Origin: Patescibacteria group bacterium
Lineage (GTDB): Bacteria; Patescibacteriota; Patescibacteriia; Patescibacteriales; UBA12465
Length of the DNA: 64,000 nt
Direction: 5' to 3'
Assembly (NCBI GenBank): GCA_041650715.1
Contig: JBAZKQ010000001.1
Coordinates: 6,945-70,944, forward strand
The position numbers were made by a program, and so were the translations under genes. Shown piece after piece: positions 1,457 to 63,069 of this stretch. The notes under the pieces are model-generated. The model worked only from the letters and a program-made list of their open reading frames with translations, did not search any database and was not told the origin of the DNA. Position 1 is the stretch's first letter. Each line of letters begins with the position of its first letter.

Positions 1457-4400
1457 TTATATTACTCTAAAGACTTCTTCGATACTGGTCTCGCCGGCGA
1501 GAGCCTTTAATATCCCGTCCTGGAGCATCGTCACCGTCCCGTTTTTAATTGCGGCGGTTTCGATGTCAAAATCGGTAACGTTATCGGATTGAATTAATTT
1601 TTGAATTTCTGGGGTCATGGTAATTGTTTCGTATAAGCCCAGGCGGCCCTTATAGCCGATCTGGCTGCATTTTTCGCAACCGACGCCATGATAGAAAGTT
1701 AATTTCTCCGGAATTTTTACGCCGGGATTATTGATTTGTCCCAGAACTTCTTGAACCCGTTTTAAGTCTTCGGCCGAGAGTTCTGTTTCTTTCTTGCAGA
1801 ATGGGCAGAGACGGCGCACTAAGCGCTGGCCGATGGTAAATTCAATCGCATTGGCTAAAGTCTGACGATCAAGTCCGAGCCCGGCAAAGCGGGAAATGGC
1901 GCCGGCGGCGCTATTAGCGTGGATAGTCGATAAAACTAAGTGGCCGGTGAGTGATGCTTCCATGGCAATCTTGGCGGTTTCGGTATCGCGGATTTCGCCA
2001 ATCATCATAATATTAGGATTTTGGCGCAGGAGTGAGCGCATGGCGGAAGCGAAAGTATAACCGCCGGCTTCATCGATTTGCGTTTGCATAACACCGGGCA
2101 GCTGGTATTCAATCGGGTCCTCGACGGTAATAATTTTAACGTCAGGCTTATTTAATTTATTCAAAATACTGTAAAGAGTCGTGGTTTTGCCGCTGCCGGT
2201 TGGACCGGTGGTGATAATAATACCCCGAGTTTTTTTCATGGCGGCTTGGAGCGAATCAAAAGCGACTGAGGTGATACCAAGTTTATCCATGCTTAAGTTA
2301 ACGGCATTGGTCGCCAGCAAGCGGATAACAATCGTTTCACCGTAACCGCCGGCAATAATCGAAAGGCGGCAATCAAGTTTGCGATCAGGCAGATAAACGC
2401 TGAAGCGGCCATCGAAAGTCGCGCGTTTAATATTGGTTGCCTCGCCGGCGAGAATTTTTATTTCAGATAACAAGGGTAGATAGCTTGTTTTTGGTAATTT
2501 TAGAACATCATGTAAAACACCGTCAATACGGAAGCGGATATGGACGTCAGTTTCCGTCGGTTCAATATGAATATCGCCGGCATCACTCACGACGGCGAGA
2601 GCCATCACCAGGTTAACTAGTTCTGAGGTCGGTATTTCTTTAACGCGCGCGGCGATATCTTCGATGTTTTGACCGAGAGCGACCGCCTTATCATATTCAG
2701 CCGCCGAAATTTTAACGCCGCGGCCGATGGTTTGTGAAATTACGATATCATAAAGCTCGTCGATATAATCAAAGTTTCCGACAACGCGATAAACTTCGTC
2801 GAGGGAAGTAATACCCTCGAGAACTTTAAGAACACCGTCTTGCAACATTGTTACCATGCCGTTTTCAATCGCTTGTTGTAGAATTTTAAATGATGGGGCG
2901 TTGTCAATCGTTAATTGCTTCAAGTTATCGCTCATCGTAAAAATTTCATAAATACCGAGGCGGCCTTTATAGCCGATAAAGTTGCACTCCGCACAGCCCG
3001 GTCCGGCCTGATAAACGCGCGGTAGTTTGGCCGGTATGTTAAGGCCGGCTTTGGGTGAAACCACCGCTAAGATTTTATTAACCTGTTCTAATTCGCTTAC
3101 ATTTAATTCATGTTCAACGCGGCAGTGCGGACAGAGTTTACGCAAAAGGCGCTGGCCGATGACCGCATTGATTGAGGGGACAAGAAAATAAGGTTTTACG
3201 CCGATATCGACTAAGCGCGGAATAACGCCGGCCGCATCATTAGTATGAAGGGTTGATAAAACCAAATGGCCGGTCAGTGATGCTTGGACAGATATTTCCG
3301 CTGTTTCTAAATCACGGATTTCCCCGACCATGACAATATTTGGGTCTTGGCGCAGAACCGAACGCAGACCGTCGGAAAAAGTATAACCGCGCTTGGTTTC
3401 GACTTGGCTTTGGTTTATGCCTTTTAATTGATATTCAATCGGATCTTCCAGGGTAATAATTTTAGTGCCCGGGAGATTTAATTTATTGATAATCGAGTAA
3501 AGAGTGGTTGTTTTACCGCTTCCGGTCGGGCCGGTCGTCAGAATTAAGCCGTTGGGCTTCGATATTTCTTTGGTTAAGAGCGGCATTATTTCTGGCCGTA
3601 TCCCCAGGTTTTCCAGGCTCATGAGCGCTTCGGTCGAATCTAGTAGTCGCATCACGACGCTTTCGCCATACGCAGTCGGTAAGAAGGAACAGCGAACATC
3701 AATTTTTTTATTTTTTAAATAAATAGTATAGCGTCCGTCTTGTGGTTTATTCTCGATATTAATTTTTACGCGGGCCAATATCTTTAAGCGGGAAATAATT
3801 TTTTTCCATTTATCGCGGTTAACCATGGCCGCTTCCTGCAAAACGCCGTCGATTCTAATTCTAATGGCGACTCCGTTTTCTTCCGCTTCAATATGGATAT
3901 CGCTGGCACCGACCTTGAGGGCGGTCGCAAGCATTAGGGTAATAACGTCGGAAATATTGACGTCGCTAATTTTATCGTTTAGGTTTTTATAGTTAGAAAT
4001 TTCATTCTTAAATTTCTCGAGGCTATCTTCGCTTATTTCAACGCCGCTTTCGTAACGTTTTACCTTGGGGATACCTTTGTAGGCCTCAAAAGCGTAGTTT
4101 AAACTATTTTGCGAAACCAAATAAAGCCGTCCCTGGGCAAAATATTGTTCGTCTAAGAGAGCGAGCTCGTTTAATATTTCGGGCGTCGACTCAAGACAGG
4201 CTAAGCGAATATTTTTACCGTCGTAGAAGAAACAAACCAGGTTTAGTTCTCGCGCTCTTTCTTCTTGAATTAAGGTTAGAGCCTCGGGGCTAATCGGAAA
4301 GCTAAATAAATTAACGTATGATAAGCCTTGCGCCTGAGCGCGCTCTTCGGTTTGTTTTTCTATTTCTTTAAGTTTGATTTCCGTCTGCTTTTTAGCAAAA

Positions 4401-58136: not shown

Positions 58137-59327
58137 ATGGCGGAAGTAAAACCAGAAATTGAAACCTTTGCCAAGATTAAAGTAGTTGGCGTCGGCGGCG
58201 GAGGCGGCAGCGCCATTAACCGTATGGTTGCAAACGGCATCCGTGGGGTTGGCTTTGTGGCTATCAATACCGATGTTCAGGCTTTGCATTATAATAAGGC
58301 GAATGAAAGAATACATATCGGCAAGACCGTTACCAAGGGTTTGGGCGCCGGTATGAATCCGGAGCTCGGCAAAGCGGCCGCGGAAGAGTCCCAGAATGAA
58401 ATCAAAGAAAGCCTTAAGGGCTGTGATATGGTTTTTGTGACCTGCGGCATGGGCGGCGGTACTGGTTCGGGCGCTTCGCCGGTCGTAGCGCAAATTGCCA
58501 AAGAAATGGGAGCCTTAACCGTAGCGGTTGTGACCAAGCCTTTTATGTTTGAAGGCGGCCAACGCAAGAATATCGCCGATCGCGCCTATGCGGAGCTCGC
58601 CGATAAGGTAGATACGATTATCACTATTTCTAATGATAAATTATTGCAGGTAATCGATAAGAAAACCTCACTTTTAGAGGCTTTTAAAATCGCTGATGAC
58701 GTTTTACGCCAAGGAGTTCAGGGAATCGCCGAGATTATTACTGTTCCTGGGATTATTAATGCTGACTTTGCCGATGTGAAGGCGGTTATGTCTAACGCCG
58801 GATCGGCCCTTATGGGCATCGGAATGGCCACAGGAGAGAACAAGGCGGTCGAAGCGGCTAAAGATGCTATTAACTCCAATCTGCTTGATATGTCCATAGA
58901 CGGGGCGCGTGGCATCGTCTTTACGATTACCGGCGGACCTGATTTGAGCATGACTGAAGTTTCGGAAGCGGCTAAGGTTATTACTTCAGCGGCCGATGAA
59001 GACGCCAAGATTATTTTTGGGGCCGTTATTGACGAAAAAATGAAAGATCAGATTAAGATTACGGTAGTGGCGACCGGTTTCGACGGACGCGGCAAGAACC
59101 AAAAGAGCGAAATGACTAATACTTATACTCCGAACGCCTTTATCGTCGAGAAAGAAAGCGAGAAGGACTCGATGATGGCTTCAACCTCGGTCGATAAGAA
59201 TAAAGGTAAGTTTAATGTCTTTAAGAATATTCCGGTAAAGCCAGCCCTCGAGAAAAAGGCGGAAAAACCGATTAATGACGACGATGACCTAAGCGTCCCC
59301 GCGTTTATTCGGAAGAAGATGGGGTAA
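58137..59327 (+). CDS. ftsZ: Cell division protein FtsZ
   Basis: 396 aa. It has [13 protein letters not shown] and the tubulin signature [15 protein letters not shown], plus NTDVQAL and the C-terminal peptide [12 protein letters not shown]. Confidence 0.95.
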
Positions 59328-59385: not shown

Positions 59386-59500
59386 ATTTTCCGAAAATAC
59401 ATTTTATTTTCTTCTGTGGATAACTTTAGAAAATATTAATATTTTAATTAAAATTAGCATAATTGACCCGGGGGTATAATTTTGCTAAAATTGAGACAGA

Positions 59501-59563: not shown

Positions 59564-60022
59564 ATGAAATGTCCAATCTGCTATTACCCCGATACTAAGG
59601 TGGTCGACTCTCGGGTCGCGCCTGACGGCCTCTCGATTCGTCGCCGCCGCGAATGTTTGAAGTGCGGCTTTCGTTTTTCCACCTATGAAGAAATAGAATT
59701 GCTTGATTTGGCGATTGTGAAGCGGGACGGACACCGGGAAAGCTATAGCCGGGAAAAGATGGTCAATGGCTTGAAAAAATCCTGCGAGAAACGACCGATT
59801 ACCGATGACCGCTTTAAAAAATTAATCCACTCCATTGAAAGAGATCTCCAACGCCTGAAAGATACGGAAATAACCTCACGCCAGATTGGCCAAGTGGTGA
59901 TGAAAAATTTAAAAAAGGTTGATCAGGTCGCCTATATCCGTTATGCCTCGGTTTATGAATCATTTAAAGACGCCCATGAGTTTCAAAAGGAACTCAATAA
60001 ATTAATTAAGGAAAAAAAATAG
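59564..60022 (+). CDS. nrdR: Transcriptional repressor NrdR
   Basis: 152 aa with the zinc ribbon MKCPICYYPDTKVVDSR...RRRECLKCGFRFSTYE and an ATP-cone. Confidence 0.93.
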   Translation: MKCPICYYPDTKVVDSRVAPDGLSIRRRRECLKCGFRFSTYEEIELLDLAIVKRDGHRESYSREKMVNGLKKSCEKRPITDDRFKKLIHSIERDLQRLKDTEITSRQIGQVVMKNLKKVDQVAYIRYASVYESFKDAHEFQKELNKLIKEKK

Positions 60023-60023
60023 T

Positions 60024-62075
60024 ATGTCTGAGACTATTAGCAAATTGATTAAAAGATCCGGGGAAATCGTTGATTTTGACCAGGACAAAATTGTGCGGGC
60101 GATTTATAAAGCGGCCGTTTCGGTCGAAATAGACGATCGCCATCTGGCGAAAAAAATCGGCGATCAGGTCGTCATGAAAATCAATAAAAAATTTCATAAA
60201 AATAGTATCCCGGCCGTAGAAGAAATCCAGGATATTGTCGAAGAGGTTTTGATTGAGAATAAATTAATTAAAATTGCTAAAGCTTATATTATTTACCGCG
60301 ACCAGCATCGCCAGATCCGCGATATTAGTAGCGCAACCTCGGATGATAAATTGATGGAGGATTATCTGGGCCGTTCCGATTGGCGTTTGAAAGAGAATAG
60401 CAATATGAGCTTTTCCGTTCAGGGTTTAAATAACTATATTGCTTCTTCGATTTCCGCGCGCTATTGGCTCAATAAAATGTATCCGGAGAATATCCGTCAG
60501 GCTCATGTGAACGGTGATATGCATATCCATGATTTAGGTCTGCTCGCTCCTTATTGCTGCGGCTGGGATTTAAAAGATTTGCTTATTCGCGGTTTTCGCG
60601 GCGTGGATGAAAAGGTGCAGAGTAATCCGCCGAAACATTTTCGGAGCGCGCTCGGCCAAATTATTAATTTTTTCTATACGATGCAAGGCGAAGCGGCCGG
60701 TGCCCAAGCCTTTGCTAATTTTGATACTTACCTTGCTCCTTTTATTAGATACGATAATTTAACTTATAAAGAAGTTAAACAGGGTCTTCAGGAATTCATG
60801 TTTAATATTAACGTTCCGACTCGGGTTGGTTTTCAAACCCCGTTTACTAATGTTACTTTAGACGTTACCCCGTCCCCCTTAATCGGCGAAGAAAGCGTTA
60901 TTATCGGCGGAGAGATCATGCCGGAAAAATATAAAGATTTTCAAACGGAAATGGATATGTTTAACCAAGCTTTTGCCGAGGTTATGCTCGCGGGCGATTC
61001 GACGGGACGCGTCTTCGGCTTTCCGATTCCGACTTACTGTATCGATAAAGAATTTGATTATGATCGTGAAAGCTTAAAAACTGTTTGGGAAATGACCGCC
61101 AAATATGGCATTCCATATTTTTCCAACTTTGTTAATTCCGATATGAACCGCGACGATGCGCGCTCAATGTGTTGCCGTCTGCGCCTTGATAACCGCGAGT
61201 TAAGAAAAAGAGGCGGCGGTTTATTCGGCGCCAATCCTTTAACGGGTTCAATTGGTGTTGTGACGATTAATTTAGCGCGCCTGGGATACTTATCCAAGAG
61301 TCAGGAAGAATTCCGCGAAAAATTGGTTCATCTCATGGACTTAGCTAAGGAAAGCTTAGAGATCAAGCGTAAGATTATTGAAAAGTTTACTGAAGACCGA
61401 CTATACCCATACTCTATGTTTTATTTGGATAATATCAACGCTCGTTTCGGGTCATATTGGAAAAATCATTTTTCCACGATCGGTATTAACGGAATGAACG
61501 AAGCAGTCCTGAATTTAATGGGTAAAGATATTACGACTCCGGAAGGCCATAAGTTTGCTGCCGAAACCCTTGATTTCATGAGAGAGAAATTAATGGATTA
61601 CCAGAACGAAACTAATGATTTATATAATTTAGAAGCGACGCCGGGAGAAGGCGCCACCTATCGCTTTGCTAAAAAAGATCAGCAGTTATACCCGGGAATT
61701 ATTTGCTCGAATACCGAGGCGGTTAAAAAGTTTAACGCCGATCCTTATTACACAAACTCCACTCATTTGCATGTCAATTATACCGATGATATTTTTTCTG
61801 CGCTTGATTTGCAGGATGACTTACAAACTAAGTATACCGGCGGCACAGTTCTGCATGGCTATCTCGGTGAACGTCTACCCGACGGCGAGACTGCGAAAAA
61901 ATTAGTGAAGAAAATCGTGGATAATTATAAACTTCCTTACTTCACAATTACCCCGACATTTTCTATCTGTCCGAAGCATGGCTATCTATCTGGCGAACAT
62001 AAATTCTGTCCGAAATGTGACGAAGAAATCGGTTATACCGAGACTGTAGCCGAGGTACGCAGTGCGAATCTCTAA
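60024..62075 (+). CDS. nrdD: Anaerobic (class III) ribonucleoside-triphosphate reductase, main body lacking the glycyl-radical motif
   Basis: 683 aa. It has an N-terminal ATP-cone, the catalytic ARSMCCRLRLD loop and a C-terminal zinc site ICPKHG...FCPKCDEE. It ends 19 aa after the last Cys with ...TETVAEVRSANL-stop and has no RVxGY motif. Confidence 0.88.
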   Translation: MSETISKLIKRSGEIVDFDQDKIVRAIYKAAVSVEIDDRHLAKKIGDQVVMKINKKFHKNSIPAVEEIQDIVEEVLIENKLIKIAKAYIIYRDQHRQIRDISSATSDDKLMEDYLGRSDWRLKENSNMSFSVQGLNNYIASSISARYWLNKMYPENIRQAHVNGDMHIHDLGLLAPYCCGWDLKDLLIRGFRGVDEKVQSNPPKHFRSALGQIINFFYTMQGEAAGAQAFANFDTYLAPFIRYDNLTYKEVKQGLQEFMFNINVPTRVGFQTPFTNVTLDVTPSPLIGEESVIIGGEIMPEKYKDFQTEMDMFNQAFAEVMLAGDSTGRVFGFPIPTYCIDKEFDYDRESLKTVWEMTAKYGIPYFSNFVNSDMNRDDARSMCCRLRLDNRELRKRGGGLFGANPLTGSIGVVTINLARLGYLSKSQEEFREKLVHLMDLAKESLEIKRKIIEKFTEDRLYPYSMFYLDNINARFGSYWKNHFSTIGINGMNEAVLNLMGKDITTPEGHKFAAETLDFMREKLMDYQNETNDLYNLEATPGEGATYRFAKKDQQLYPGIICSNTEAVKKFNADPYYTNSTHLHVNYTDDIFSALDLQDDLQTKYTGGTVLHGYLGERLPDGETAKKLVKKIVDNYKLPYFTITPTFSICPKHGYLSGEHKFCPKCDEEIGYTETVAEVRSANL

Positions 62076-62099
62076 TATTAGGTAATATCTTTCGCCGAT

Positions 62100-62128
62100 T
62101 TGTAATTTTAATAAATCTTATTTATAAT
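62100..62128 (+). promoter_or_regulatory. Promoter-like element inside the nrdD/glycyl-radical-ORF spacer
   Basis: TTGTAA (62100-62105), an exact 17-nt spacer, then TATAAT (62123-62128). It lies about 60 nt upstream of the ATG at 62188. Confidence 0.4.
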
Positions 62129-62187
62129 AATAATGCAATTAGTCATTAATTAATCTAAAATTATTAATTAGTTGCTTAATTTGAGAT

Positions 62188-62328
62188 ATGAGCCCCATTC
62201 AAACTCAAAGACAAGAATGTATCGTTTACAGCCGTGTCGTCGGCTGGTTAACACCGGTTAAGAACTATAATCCCGGTAAAGCATCTGAATACAAGGATCG
62301 AAAAACCTTTAAGGTTCTCTCCGAGTAA
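62188..62328 (+). CDS. 46-aa ORF encoding the NrdD glycyl-radical C-terminal motif (detached)
   Basis: Absent from the ORF track because it is under 60 aa. The translation is MSPIQTQRQECIVYSRVVGWLTPVKNYNPGKASEYKDRKTFKVLSE. YSRVVGW...NPGK..E.KDRK corresponds to the RVxGY...N.GKQEE..R glycyl-radical tail of class III RNRs. It is in a different frame from nrdD and is preceded by an in-frame TGA at 62182. Confidence 0.75.
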   Translation: MSPIQTQRQECIVYSRVVGWLTPVKNYNPGKASEYKDRKTFKVLSE

Positions 62329-62343
62329 TTAGATTTCACGCTT

Positions 62344-63069
62344 ATGATTATTGGTGGTTTAGAGAAGTTAACGCTTCTGGACTACCCCGATCATTTGGCG
62401 GCTATAATCTTTACCCAAGGTTGTAATTTCCGTTGCCACTTTTGCTACAACCCTATGCTTGTCCTGCCCCAAACGGGAGGGGACGAAAAAAATAAAAAAG
62501 AAAAAGGTTTTTCTCCGCTTTCCACTGAAGACCTTTTTCTTTTTTTGAAGGAAAGATTTGGCCGCCTTGAAGGGGTCGTTATCACGGGCGGGGAGCCGAC
62601 ACTGCACCCCGACCTGCCGTCTTTTATTAAAACTATAAAAGACATGGGTTATTTGGTTAAGTTAGACAGTAACGGCACAAACCCGGAAATGCTCGCGGGT
62701 CTGATTAAAGATAAATTGGTTGATTATATTGCCATGGATATTAAGGCGCCGCTCGATAAATATGAGACGACGGTTAATGTCAAACTTGACTGGGATAATA
62801 TCAGAAAAAGTGTTAAAATAATAATGGCGAGCGGCCTGCCTTATGAATTTCGGACGACCGTCGTTCCAGGGCTTTTAGAAAAGGATGATTTTCATGCGAT
62901 GGGCGTATTAATTAAAGGAGCCAGCAAATGGTATTTGCAAAATTTTAAGTCTGATACTGAATTAGTAAATGCTACTTATAAAAAACAGGCGGGCTTCAGC
63001 ACTCAAGAAATGAAAGAATTTGCCGTTATCGGTCGAGAATATGTCGGTCTTTGCGAAGTTAGAACTTAA
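62344..63069 (+). CDS. nrdG: Anaerobic ribonucleotide reductase activating protein (radical SAM)
   Basis: 241 aa. It has the CxxxCxxC motif GCNFRCHFCYNP, then GVVITGGEPTL and KLDSNGTNP. Confidence 0.88.
   Translation: MIIGGLEKLTLLDYPDHLAAIIFTQGCNFRCHFCYNPMLVLPQTGGDEKNKKEKGFSPLSTEDLFLFLKERFGRLEGVVITGGEPTLHPDLPSFIKTIKDMGYLVKLDSNGTNPEMLAGLIKDKLVDYIAMDIKAPLDKYETTVNVKLDWDNIRKSVKIIMASGLPYEFRTTVVPGLLEKDDFHAMGVLIKGASKWYLQNFKSDTELVNATYKKQAGFSTQEMKEFAVIGREYVGLCEVRT

Follow-up and report, generated by a model that had tools for sequence, protein, structure and literature searches.

A probable two-gene class III ribonucleotide reductase locus of Patescibacteria with the glycyl-radical loop on a separate 46-residue protein

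To our knowledge, every characterised glycyl-radical enzyme carries its radical glycine on a loop of the same polypeptide chain, where it is buried in the barrel. The activase requires this loop to swing out, and oxygen destroys it. In the contiguous class III ribonucleotide reductase (RNR) NrdD of the NF006126/PRK08270 type (Thermotoga maritima, PDB 4COI/4U3E), an ATP-cone, an NRDD barrel, a double-cysteine finger loop, a zinc ribbon, the radical motif and an N-x-GK-x-E-x-x-R tail are found together, with an NrdG2-type activase encoded next to them. The locus described here lies in a 64-kb stretch of a Patescibacteria group bacterium genome (assembly GCA_041650715.1, contig JBAZKQ010000001.1, positions 6,945 to 70,944; hereafter the window) and has all of these elements, but, unlike in the contiguous enzyme, the radical loop and tail are encoded by a separate 46-codon open reading frame (ORF), the break falls after the last zinc cysteine and a predicted promoter lies between the two genes. 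Very probably the locus encodes a functional two-polypeptide class III RNR, in which the radical-bearing loop would act in trans on a larger chain, here termed the body.

Several described systems resemble this arrangement in part. GrcA/YfiD from Escherichia coli and phage T4's Y06I are autonomous glycyl-radical spare parts for pyruvate formate-lyase (PFL), and the locus likewise has a free glycyl-radical module: a small stand-alone homologue of the radical domain of a glycyl-radical enzyme, 46 residues long, which covers the last 33 positions of the NRDD profile and is shorter than GrcA (127 residues). However, GrcA is an extra copy that rescues full-length PFL after domain cleavage, PFL having a radical domain of its own, whereas the small protein is never an extra copy and is not homologous to the PFL-type domain PF01228. 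As its homology is to NrdD and not to PFL, and as it is predicted to be obligatory rather than a spare copy, since the body never carries a glycyl-radical domain, the small protein is not regarded as a member of the GrcA family. According to a review of June 2026 (PMC13450708), spare-part proteins are known only for the formate lyases, and their existence for other glycyl-radical enzymes is “yet to be determined”. In the alpha/beta class I RNRs a stable radical is also held on a chain apart from the barrel and delivered to the finger-loop cysteine, but beta is a ferritin-like metalloprotein which relies on long-range proton-coupled electron transfer, whereas the carrier in this locus would be a 46-residue peptide that needs to sit inside the barrel. 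The nrdA gene of Aeromonas phage Aeh1 is said, in work by Friedrich and co-workers of 2007, to be split by the homing endonuclease gene mobE and to be functional still; there a resident mobile endonuclease gene is the cause of the split, whereas the 80 NrdD spacers compared here (longest 184 nucleotides, nt) show neither a mobile-element gene nor a remnant of one. The split class II RNR NrdJa/NrdJb of Pseudomonas aeruginosa, attributed to Crona et al. (2015) in PMC9669993, is similar only as a two-gene RNR: its catalytic chain likewise comes from two consecutive genes whose products must associate, but this enzyme belongs to the B12-dependent class, its split point is different and the separated piece carries no radical. 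Neither a split NrdD nor a stand-alone NrdD radical subunit was found in full-text literature searches, the coverage of which leaves most subscription journals outside, and Pfam, NCBIfam and PHROG hold no family for the small protein. This agrees with an earlier note on this DNA, made from the letters of the window, which knew of no described stand-alone radical subunit for NrdD. A two-piece NrdD has thus apparently never been described; small-protein sequences are already present in public databases, some of them labelled “anaerobic ribonucleoside-triphosphate reductase”.

The elements of the locus, in window coordinates, are as follows.

60024-62075, + strand: NrdD body, 683 residues, with ATP-cone, catalytic barrel, finger loop and zinc ribbon (Pfam NRDD, NCBIfam NF006126)
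60045-60311, + strand: ATP-cone, body residues 8-96 (Pfam PF03477, E 7.4e-20)
61167-61181, + strand: finger loop MCCRL of the double-cysteine type, body residues 382-386, site of the catalytic thiyl cysteine
61968-62018, + strand: zinc ribbon, CPKH (residues 649-652) and CPKC (residues 662-665), spaced CPKH-x9-CPKC, aligned to T. maritima NrdD 4COI
62019-62075, + strand: body tail, made up of DEEIGY (62019-62036), 12 variable residues (62037-62072) and TAA (62073-62075)
62076-62187, + strand: AT-rich intergenic spacer, 112 nt
62100-62128, + strand: sigma-70-type promoter-like element TTGTAA-N17-TATAAT, 59 nt before the ATG of the small ORF
62182-62184, + strand: TGA in the frame of the small ORF, one codon 5' of its ATG
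62188-62328, + strand: putative small subunit, 46 residues, NrdD glycyl-radical loop and C-terminal tail (Pfam NRDD, 4COI alignment)
62344-63069, + strand: nrdG, radical S-adenosylmethionine activase, 241 residues, 15 nt 3' of the small ORF (NCBIfam TIGR02495, Pfam Radical_SAM)

Along the NrdD profile the body and the small ORF complement each other exactly. In Pfam NRDD (PF13597) the body accounts for profile positions 1-532 of 562 (E 6e-183) and the small ORF for positions 530-562 (E 6.7e-7; 28.8 bits against a cut-off of 26.2), whilst NCBIfam NF006126 matches them over positions 3-658 of 684 (1032 bits, cut-off 548) and 649-683 respectively. NCBIfam TIGR02487 also matches the body (520 bits, cut-off 326), and the activase is typed as NrdG2 by TIGR02495 (202 bits, cut-off 131). 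The only matches of class II RNR models from NCBIfam at the locus stem from the common ATP-cone; the PFL-type Gly_radical domain PF01228 gave no match, and among Pfam families PF13597 alone matched the small ORF at E <= 1. The body therefore has the NRDD barrel, finger-loop cysteine, zinc ribbon and nearby NrdG of a class III RNR, but the R-V-x-G-aromatic motif expected on the same chain is absent from it. Its C-terminus reads ...CPKCDEEIGYTETVAEVRSANL (at greater length ...FCPKCDEEIGYTETVAEVRSANL, then TAA) and ends 18 residues after the zinc ribbon, which is the last element common to the body and contiguous NrdD. The motif is found instead on the small ORF, which is in a frame (+1) other than that of the body and encodes MSPIQTQRQECIVYSRVVGWLTPVKNYNPGKASEYKDRKTFKVLSE, with SRVVGW including Gly19 (codon 62242-62244) and Trp20 (codon 62245-62247).

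Residues C383 and C384 of the finger loop, together with their neighbours, are invariant in the alignment of relatives; the motif classes of this loop are described in PMC9669993. The profile of the small protein aligns to residues 616-645 of T. maritima NrdD 4COI (YMRIVGYLVPV...), with Gly19 on the glycine of RIVGY. That glycine we take to be the radical Gly621, and the CPKC of the body aligns to the zinc ribbon of 4COI, a few residues upstream of the radical-loop match. Contiguous relatives share 57-67% identity at their C-terminal ends with the core of the small ORF and 62-67% with the body, and at such similar values the small ORF evolves like the cognate NrdD domain. Taken at the level of their sequences, the two products jointly contain every element of contiguous NrdD and co-occur with the activase. 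Most of what the earlier note had described is upheld by these results: a 683-residue body stopping at 62075, with ATP-cone, CCRL and CPKH...CPKC and free of a radical motif (sequence and Pfam), the 112-nt AT-rich spacer, the 46-codon ORF in another frame after an in-frame TGA with nrdG 15 nt further on, and the identity of this ORF with the NrdD radical block, now placed by Pfam NRDD, NF006126 and the alignment to Thermotoga NrdD that the note had proposed. Its suggestion that the body tail is a degenerate remnant of the radical loop is not supported by the comparison: DEE[IML]G[YF] is kept after the ribbon in nearly all of 80 split bodies, and the tails, of 9-28 residues, are otherwise unconserved.

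The split is not peculiar to the window. In a collection of 5.8 billion proteins, at least 136 are close homologues of the small-ORF product; the 120 listed are all stand-alone, 41-65 residues long and 69-98% identical, and such numbers place the split far beyond chance. The same split, which the earlier note had proposed to seek in related genomes, was found in a scan of one genome per GTDB species, where at least 162 species-level genomes carry the small gene; the informatively named carriers among them are Falkowbacteria, Parcubacteria or Patescibacteria, and two are closed chromosomes (CP066698.1, L012, and OW818634.1, L033; the L and P numbers used here are analysis labels for the related loci and proteins retrieved). 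Many carrier records (L001, L003, L006 and others) bear the title “uncultured Gammaproteobacteria bacterium”, whilst some name Planctomycetota, Bacillota or Saccharimonadales; such titles look unreliable. The nearest homologues of the C-terminal 283 residues of the body (at least 66% identity) all end in CPKCDEEIGY, a variable tail and a stop codon, whereas contiguous NrdD relatives appear only at about 62-67% identity and read CPxC-x4-6-EVYSRVVGY..P..WN.GK..EF..RK, which puts the break directly after the last zinc cysteine. What separates the two forms is an 18-residue tail, a promoter-bearing spacer and an 11-residue new N-terminus rather than a single indel. In a neighbour-joining tree of 120 body fragments, 16 contiguous relatives fall in two groups among the split ones and the deep nodes are star-like.

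A comparison of the window with 80 related loci, in 79 of which the body end and thus the spacer is covered, bears on how the small ORF is expressed. Its ATG stands at the same aligned position in 81/81 loci, each of which also has an in-frame stop 6-102 nt upstream of it, and nrdG adjoins in all 81; the body lacks a radical domain in the window and in the 79 loci where its end is covered. The frame offset between body and small ORF is 0, 1 or 2 in 38, 22 and 20 loci, with no pattern. Among the 81 distinct nucleotide sequences of the small ORF, the entropy at the three codon positions is 0.26, 0.17 and 1.17, and 79% of codon differences are synonymous. From the invariant ATG, the upstream in-frame stops, the codon-position pattern and the mostly synonymous differences, it is evident that the small ORF is, as a predicted product, an independently initiated protein under purifying selection. 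A Shine-Dalgarno-like motif precedes it in only 3/81 loci. Tryptophan follows the radical glycine in the window, as it does in the 80 related loci and the close homologues inspected, whereas contiguous relatives and most other mini-proteins of this type have tyrosine or phenylalanine there.

The spacers themselves are 18-184 nt long (median 78, window included), have no conserved ends and average 17.7% guanine plus cytosine, against 41% for the small ORF. When aligned they are divergent except for one conserved block, TTGTAATTT-N-TAATTTATAAT, which amounts to TTGTAA-N17-TATAAT. All 12 positions of this element match in 37/80 spacers and at least 11 in 48/80, against a background of 27 matches of at least 11/12 in 1.3 million positions of the same loci. 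The element at 62100-62128 is the sole perfect match in the 64 kb of the window; two further sites, each with one mismatch, precede gene starts by 46-47 nt on the correct strand. By the distance between -10 hexamer and ATG the loci divide into two classes, of 9-21 nt and of 44-79 nt, the window with 59 nt belonging to the second, and the shorter class implies a putative leaderless mRNA or one with a very short leader. Given the conservation of the element, its rarity in the background and its distance to the ATG, the AT-rich spacer is best read as a promoter region, and the small gene is probably transcribed with nrdG as a unit of its own, distinct from that of nrdD and the nrdR gene which precedes it. 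This predicted internal promoter had not been noticed before. No terminator-like site was found on the + strand between body and small ORF, and a search with the NrdR-box consensus gave no match near the locus. At three loci (L016, L035 and L044) the body gene runs into the -35 hexamer TTGTAA, the TAA of which is the body stop codon.

How such an enzyme might work can be outlined by reference to contiguous NrdD. The 46-residue peptide would dock non-covalently in the barrel, in place of the covalently attached radical domain, and its glycine loop would insert opposite the MCCRL finger loop (residues 382-386). NrdG would abstract a hydrogen from Gly19 to give the glycyl radical, which would then pass to the finger-loop cysteine, with catalysis proceeding as in the contiguous enzyme. 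The small gene and nrdG could be seen as an “activation module” on its own promoter, apart from nrdR-nrdD. A detachable radical domain is structurally plausible, since in the cryo-electron microscopy study of Prevotella copri NrdD this domain is expected to move largely as a rigid body and is disordered in inactive states (PMC11226230). At its N-terminus the peptide is conserved as MSPxxxxRQEC, and this motif and DEE[IML]G[YF], both specific to the split family, are candidates for the elements of a non-covalent interface. Other gene orders occur with the same split point, namely body-nrdG-small at L090 and L101 and small-body at L151, which argues for action in trans, as do the orphan small genes that lack a neighbouring body.

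Some further features of the termini can be recorded here. Cysteine pairs (CxxC or CC) end the body tail in 14/80 cases (L037, L040, L046, L049, L052, L054-L056, L062, L064, L073, L074, L079 and L080; proteins P0132-P0152), all 14 being paired with a small ORF that has a C-terminal cysteine. A cysteine lies within the last 9 residues of 52/80 small ORFs; the window copy has no such C-terminal cysteines. These residues of the split pair recall the redox-shuttle cysteines of class I and II RNRs. A subset of the longer body tails (P0133, P0135, P0139, P0153, P0178, P0180, P0190, P0203 and P0222) share a C-terminal ...[DE]R[ND]II.A[IL]A, which might serve as a peptide for docking. Replacement of a zinc ligand by the near-invariant Cys11 of the small protein was considered, but contiguous relatives with CPxH have the extra cysteine in 10 cases and lack it in 8; there is no correlation and the idea stays speculative.

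Stand-alone proteins with an NrdD-type radical motif also occur beyond this clade. A hidden Markov model search of 1.84 billion cluster representatives gave 4245 matches at E <= 1e-3, of which the best 150 were inspected; all are 47-115 residues long and most are Met-initiated and without a zinc ribbon. The residue pair at the radical glycine among these 150 is G-Y in 106, G-F in 20 and G-W in 13, and with G-Y and G-F predominating the tryptophan is a feature of the window clade and not general to split enzymes. Three contexts that were looked up have the same split point in other Patescibacteria; one contig with a mini-protein is labelled Pacearchaeota, and one split body carries an intein, the small gene there lying 3' of nrdG. 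The bodies at L090 (1-3053) and L091 (1006-4029) are one with an intein and LAGLIDADG matches (at least 1076 residues) and one of 1007 residues. An orphan 48-residue NrdD-type radical gene (P0261) lies directly after mraZ and rsmH in 14 contigs (e.g., L084 4001-4147, L085 1632-1778), with no NrdD body found within 4 kb, and other orphan copies neighbour an intein-rich MCM helicase or occur amid small ORFs of the kind usual in mobile elements.

Among the best 80 IMG/VR loci (L092-L171), 65 have short stand-alone ORFs of 41-160 residues, counted from stop to stop, with an NrdD-type radical motif (for example near position 3540 in L104 and L112, 3525 in L107 and 3534 in L130), and for nearly all of the 65 no NrdD body was found within 3.5 kb. 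The mini-gene of L112 stands amid head-tail adaptor, tail terminator and major tail genes, and that of L104 adjoins an endolysin and an exonuclease. It is possible that the viral mini-proteins are phage “spare parts” for NrdD, in parallel to T4 Y06I for PFL. The archaeal virus ANMV-1 (KP703175.1, L172) has at 2686-3120 a coding sequence of 144 residues (AJP62049.1) annotated as “anaerobic ribonucleoside triphosphate reductase”, which holds the radical-domain end of NrdD only, with no annotated body gene within 3 kb on either side. Some mini-proteins of 73-160 residues carry their own CxxC...CxxC ribbon before the radical loop (P0274, P0297, P0309, P0344 and P0385; in viruses L131, L141, L163, L164 and L167) and may mark either another break point or a free radical domain that is more complete.

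Several points count against the reading of the locus as a functional two-polypeptide enzyme. We infer the expression of both genes, the formation of a complex and its activity from sequence; another RNR in these genomes may make the locus dispensable; the spacer promoter is a prediction, a consensus match backed by conservation; and any benefit of an exchangeable piece is argued by analogy with GrcA. AlphaFold2 models give no support either way, nor do they speak to docking: the small protein alone reached a mean predicted local distance difference test (pLDDT) score of 51, and a fusion of body and small protein, modelled from a shallow alignment of 32 sequences, reached 64.6, the finger loop and residues 673-729 scoring below 50. 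The earlier note had set the two-piece RNR beside an intervening sequence or recoding event and a pseudogene or assembly error, and the comparison now separates these. That the ORFs are rejoined in one chain, by a small intron, ribosomal bypass of the T4 gene 60 type, frameshift or stop read-through, is suggested by the different frames of the two ORFs in the window and by the group I intron that interrupts T4 nrdD, but it is highly improbable. The invariant ATG with its upstream in-frame stop and the promoter inside the gap both speak against it; an intron could not fit in a spacer of 18 nt, and the random frame offsets rule out frameshift or read-through. Rfam searches of 61500-62800 at permissive E-values gave sub-threshold noise only, with neither an intron nor a riboswitch family matched, the fold of the spacer RNA does not surpass that of shuffled sequence (z = -0.71) and Pfam found no intein domain at the locus. 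Intron, intein and bypass were accordingly rejected, there being no conserved intervening element with fixed boundaries that would restore one frame. An artefact or pseudogene derived from contiguous nrdD has still less to recommend it, and we consider its probability negligible: indel errors can occur in metagenome-assembled genomes, and many bodies are labelled “partial” by NCBI, but the same architecture recurs in the 162 independent species genomes, many metagenomes and the two closed chromosomes, the split is, as described above, more than one indel, and both pieces are under purifying selection. The two-piece RNR is thus the possibility of the three that the species distribution, purifying selection, invariant ATG and conserved spacer promoter bear out.

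Why the enzyme should be split is a separate question. The fission may be functionally neutral, giving a permanent tight heterodimer which behaves as contiguous NrdD, with no exchange, off-enzyme activation or repair, and a promoter which only secures enough of the downstream product; we would put the chance of this a little short of even. The zinc ribbon and DEEIGY kept in the body and MSPxxxxRQEC in the small ORF could make up a stable interface, most genomes have the genes side by side and other split RNRs are known, such as the NrdJa/NrdJb cited in PMC9669993. However, the small gene has its own strongly conserved promoter, and the variable gene order and the unlinked or orphan copies, those of phages included, suggest that the piece can act as a free module. 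The split might instead allow the oxygen-cleavable radical piece to be re-supplied or exchanged without remaking the 683-residue body, possibly with off-enzyme activation, a reading by analogy which we hold tentatively; the dedicated promoter, the variable gene order and the unlinked copies favour it over a neutral split. In a stronger and more doubtful form, the 46-residue protein would be a diffusible, exchangeable radical carrier: NrdG would arm the free peptide, which would plug into a vacant body and be swapped after oxygen cleavage, and the orphan mini-proteins of tailed phages, the archaeal virus and the mraZ-rsmH context in a cell-division gene cluster would be trans-acting parts that re-arm or hijack host NrdD.

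The surroundings of the locus in the window complete the description. Two further elements lie 5' of nrdD.

59463-59491: promoter-like TTGACC-17-TAAAAT upstream of nrdR (promoter scan)
59564-60022, + strand: nrdR, 152 residues, repressor of nrd gene transcription (Pfam ATP-cone and Zn_ribbon_NrdR, the latter with E 1.7e-20)

The gap from the stop of nrdR to the start of nrdD is 1 nt. Directly 5' of the nrd genes is ftsZ (58137-59327), itself preceded by a run of same-strand ORFs, and the linkage of ftsZ with nrd is conserved in a distant Patescibacteria relative (L089 288-1634, on a 958-kb contig). Within the 64-kb window neither the small ORF nor nrdD was found a second time.

To judge by the genomes compared, the architecture is a widespread and conserved variant of a known enzyme. 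It has consequences for annotation, as bodies are commonly called “partial” by NCBI and the small ORFs are overlooked or given the name of the full enzyme, and it points to an apparently unrecognised class of phage-encoded NrdD-type radical mini-proteins. The locus also provides a minimal natural system in which to address an open question of glycyl-radical enzymology: whether an activase can act on a free loop, whether the loop can be exchanged on the body and whether an oxygen-damaged enzyme can be repaired by a new loop are questions which are directly testable here, because the system is small enough for synthesis. If the small protein is indeed an exchangeable radical carrier, it would represent the first “spare part” system for an enzyme other than pyruvate formate-lyase, and class III RNR would then operate as class I does, with one subunit for catalysis and another that bears the radical.

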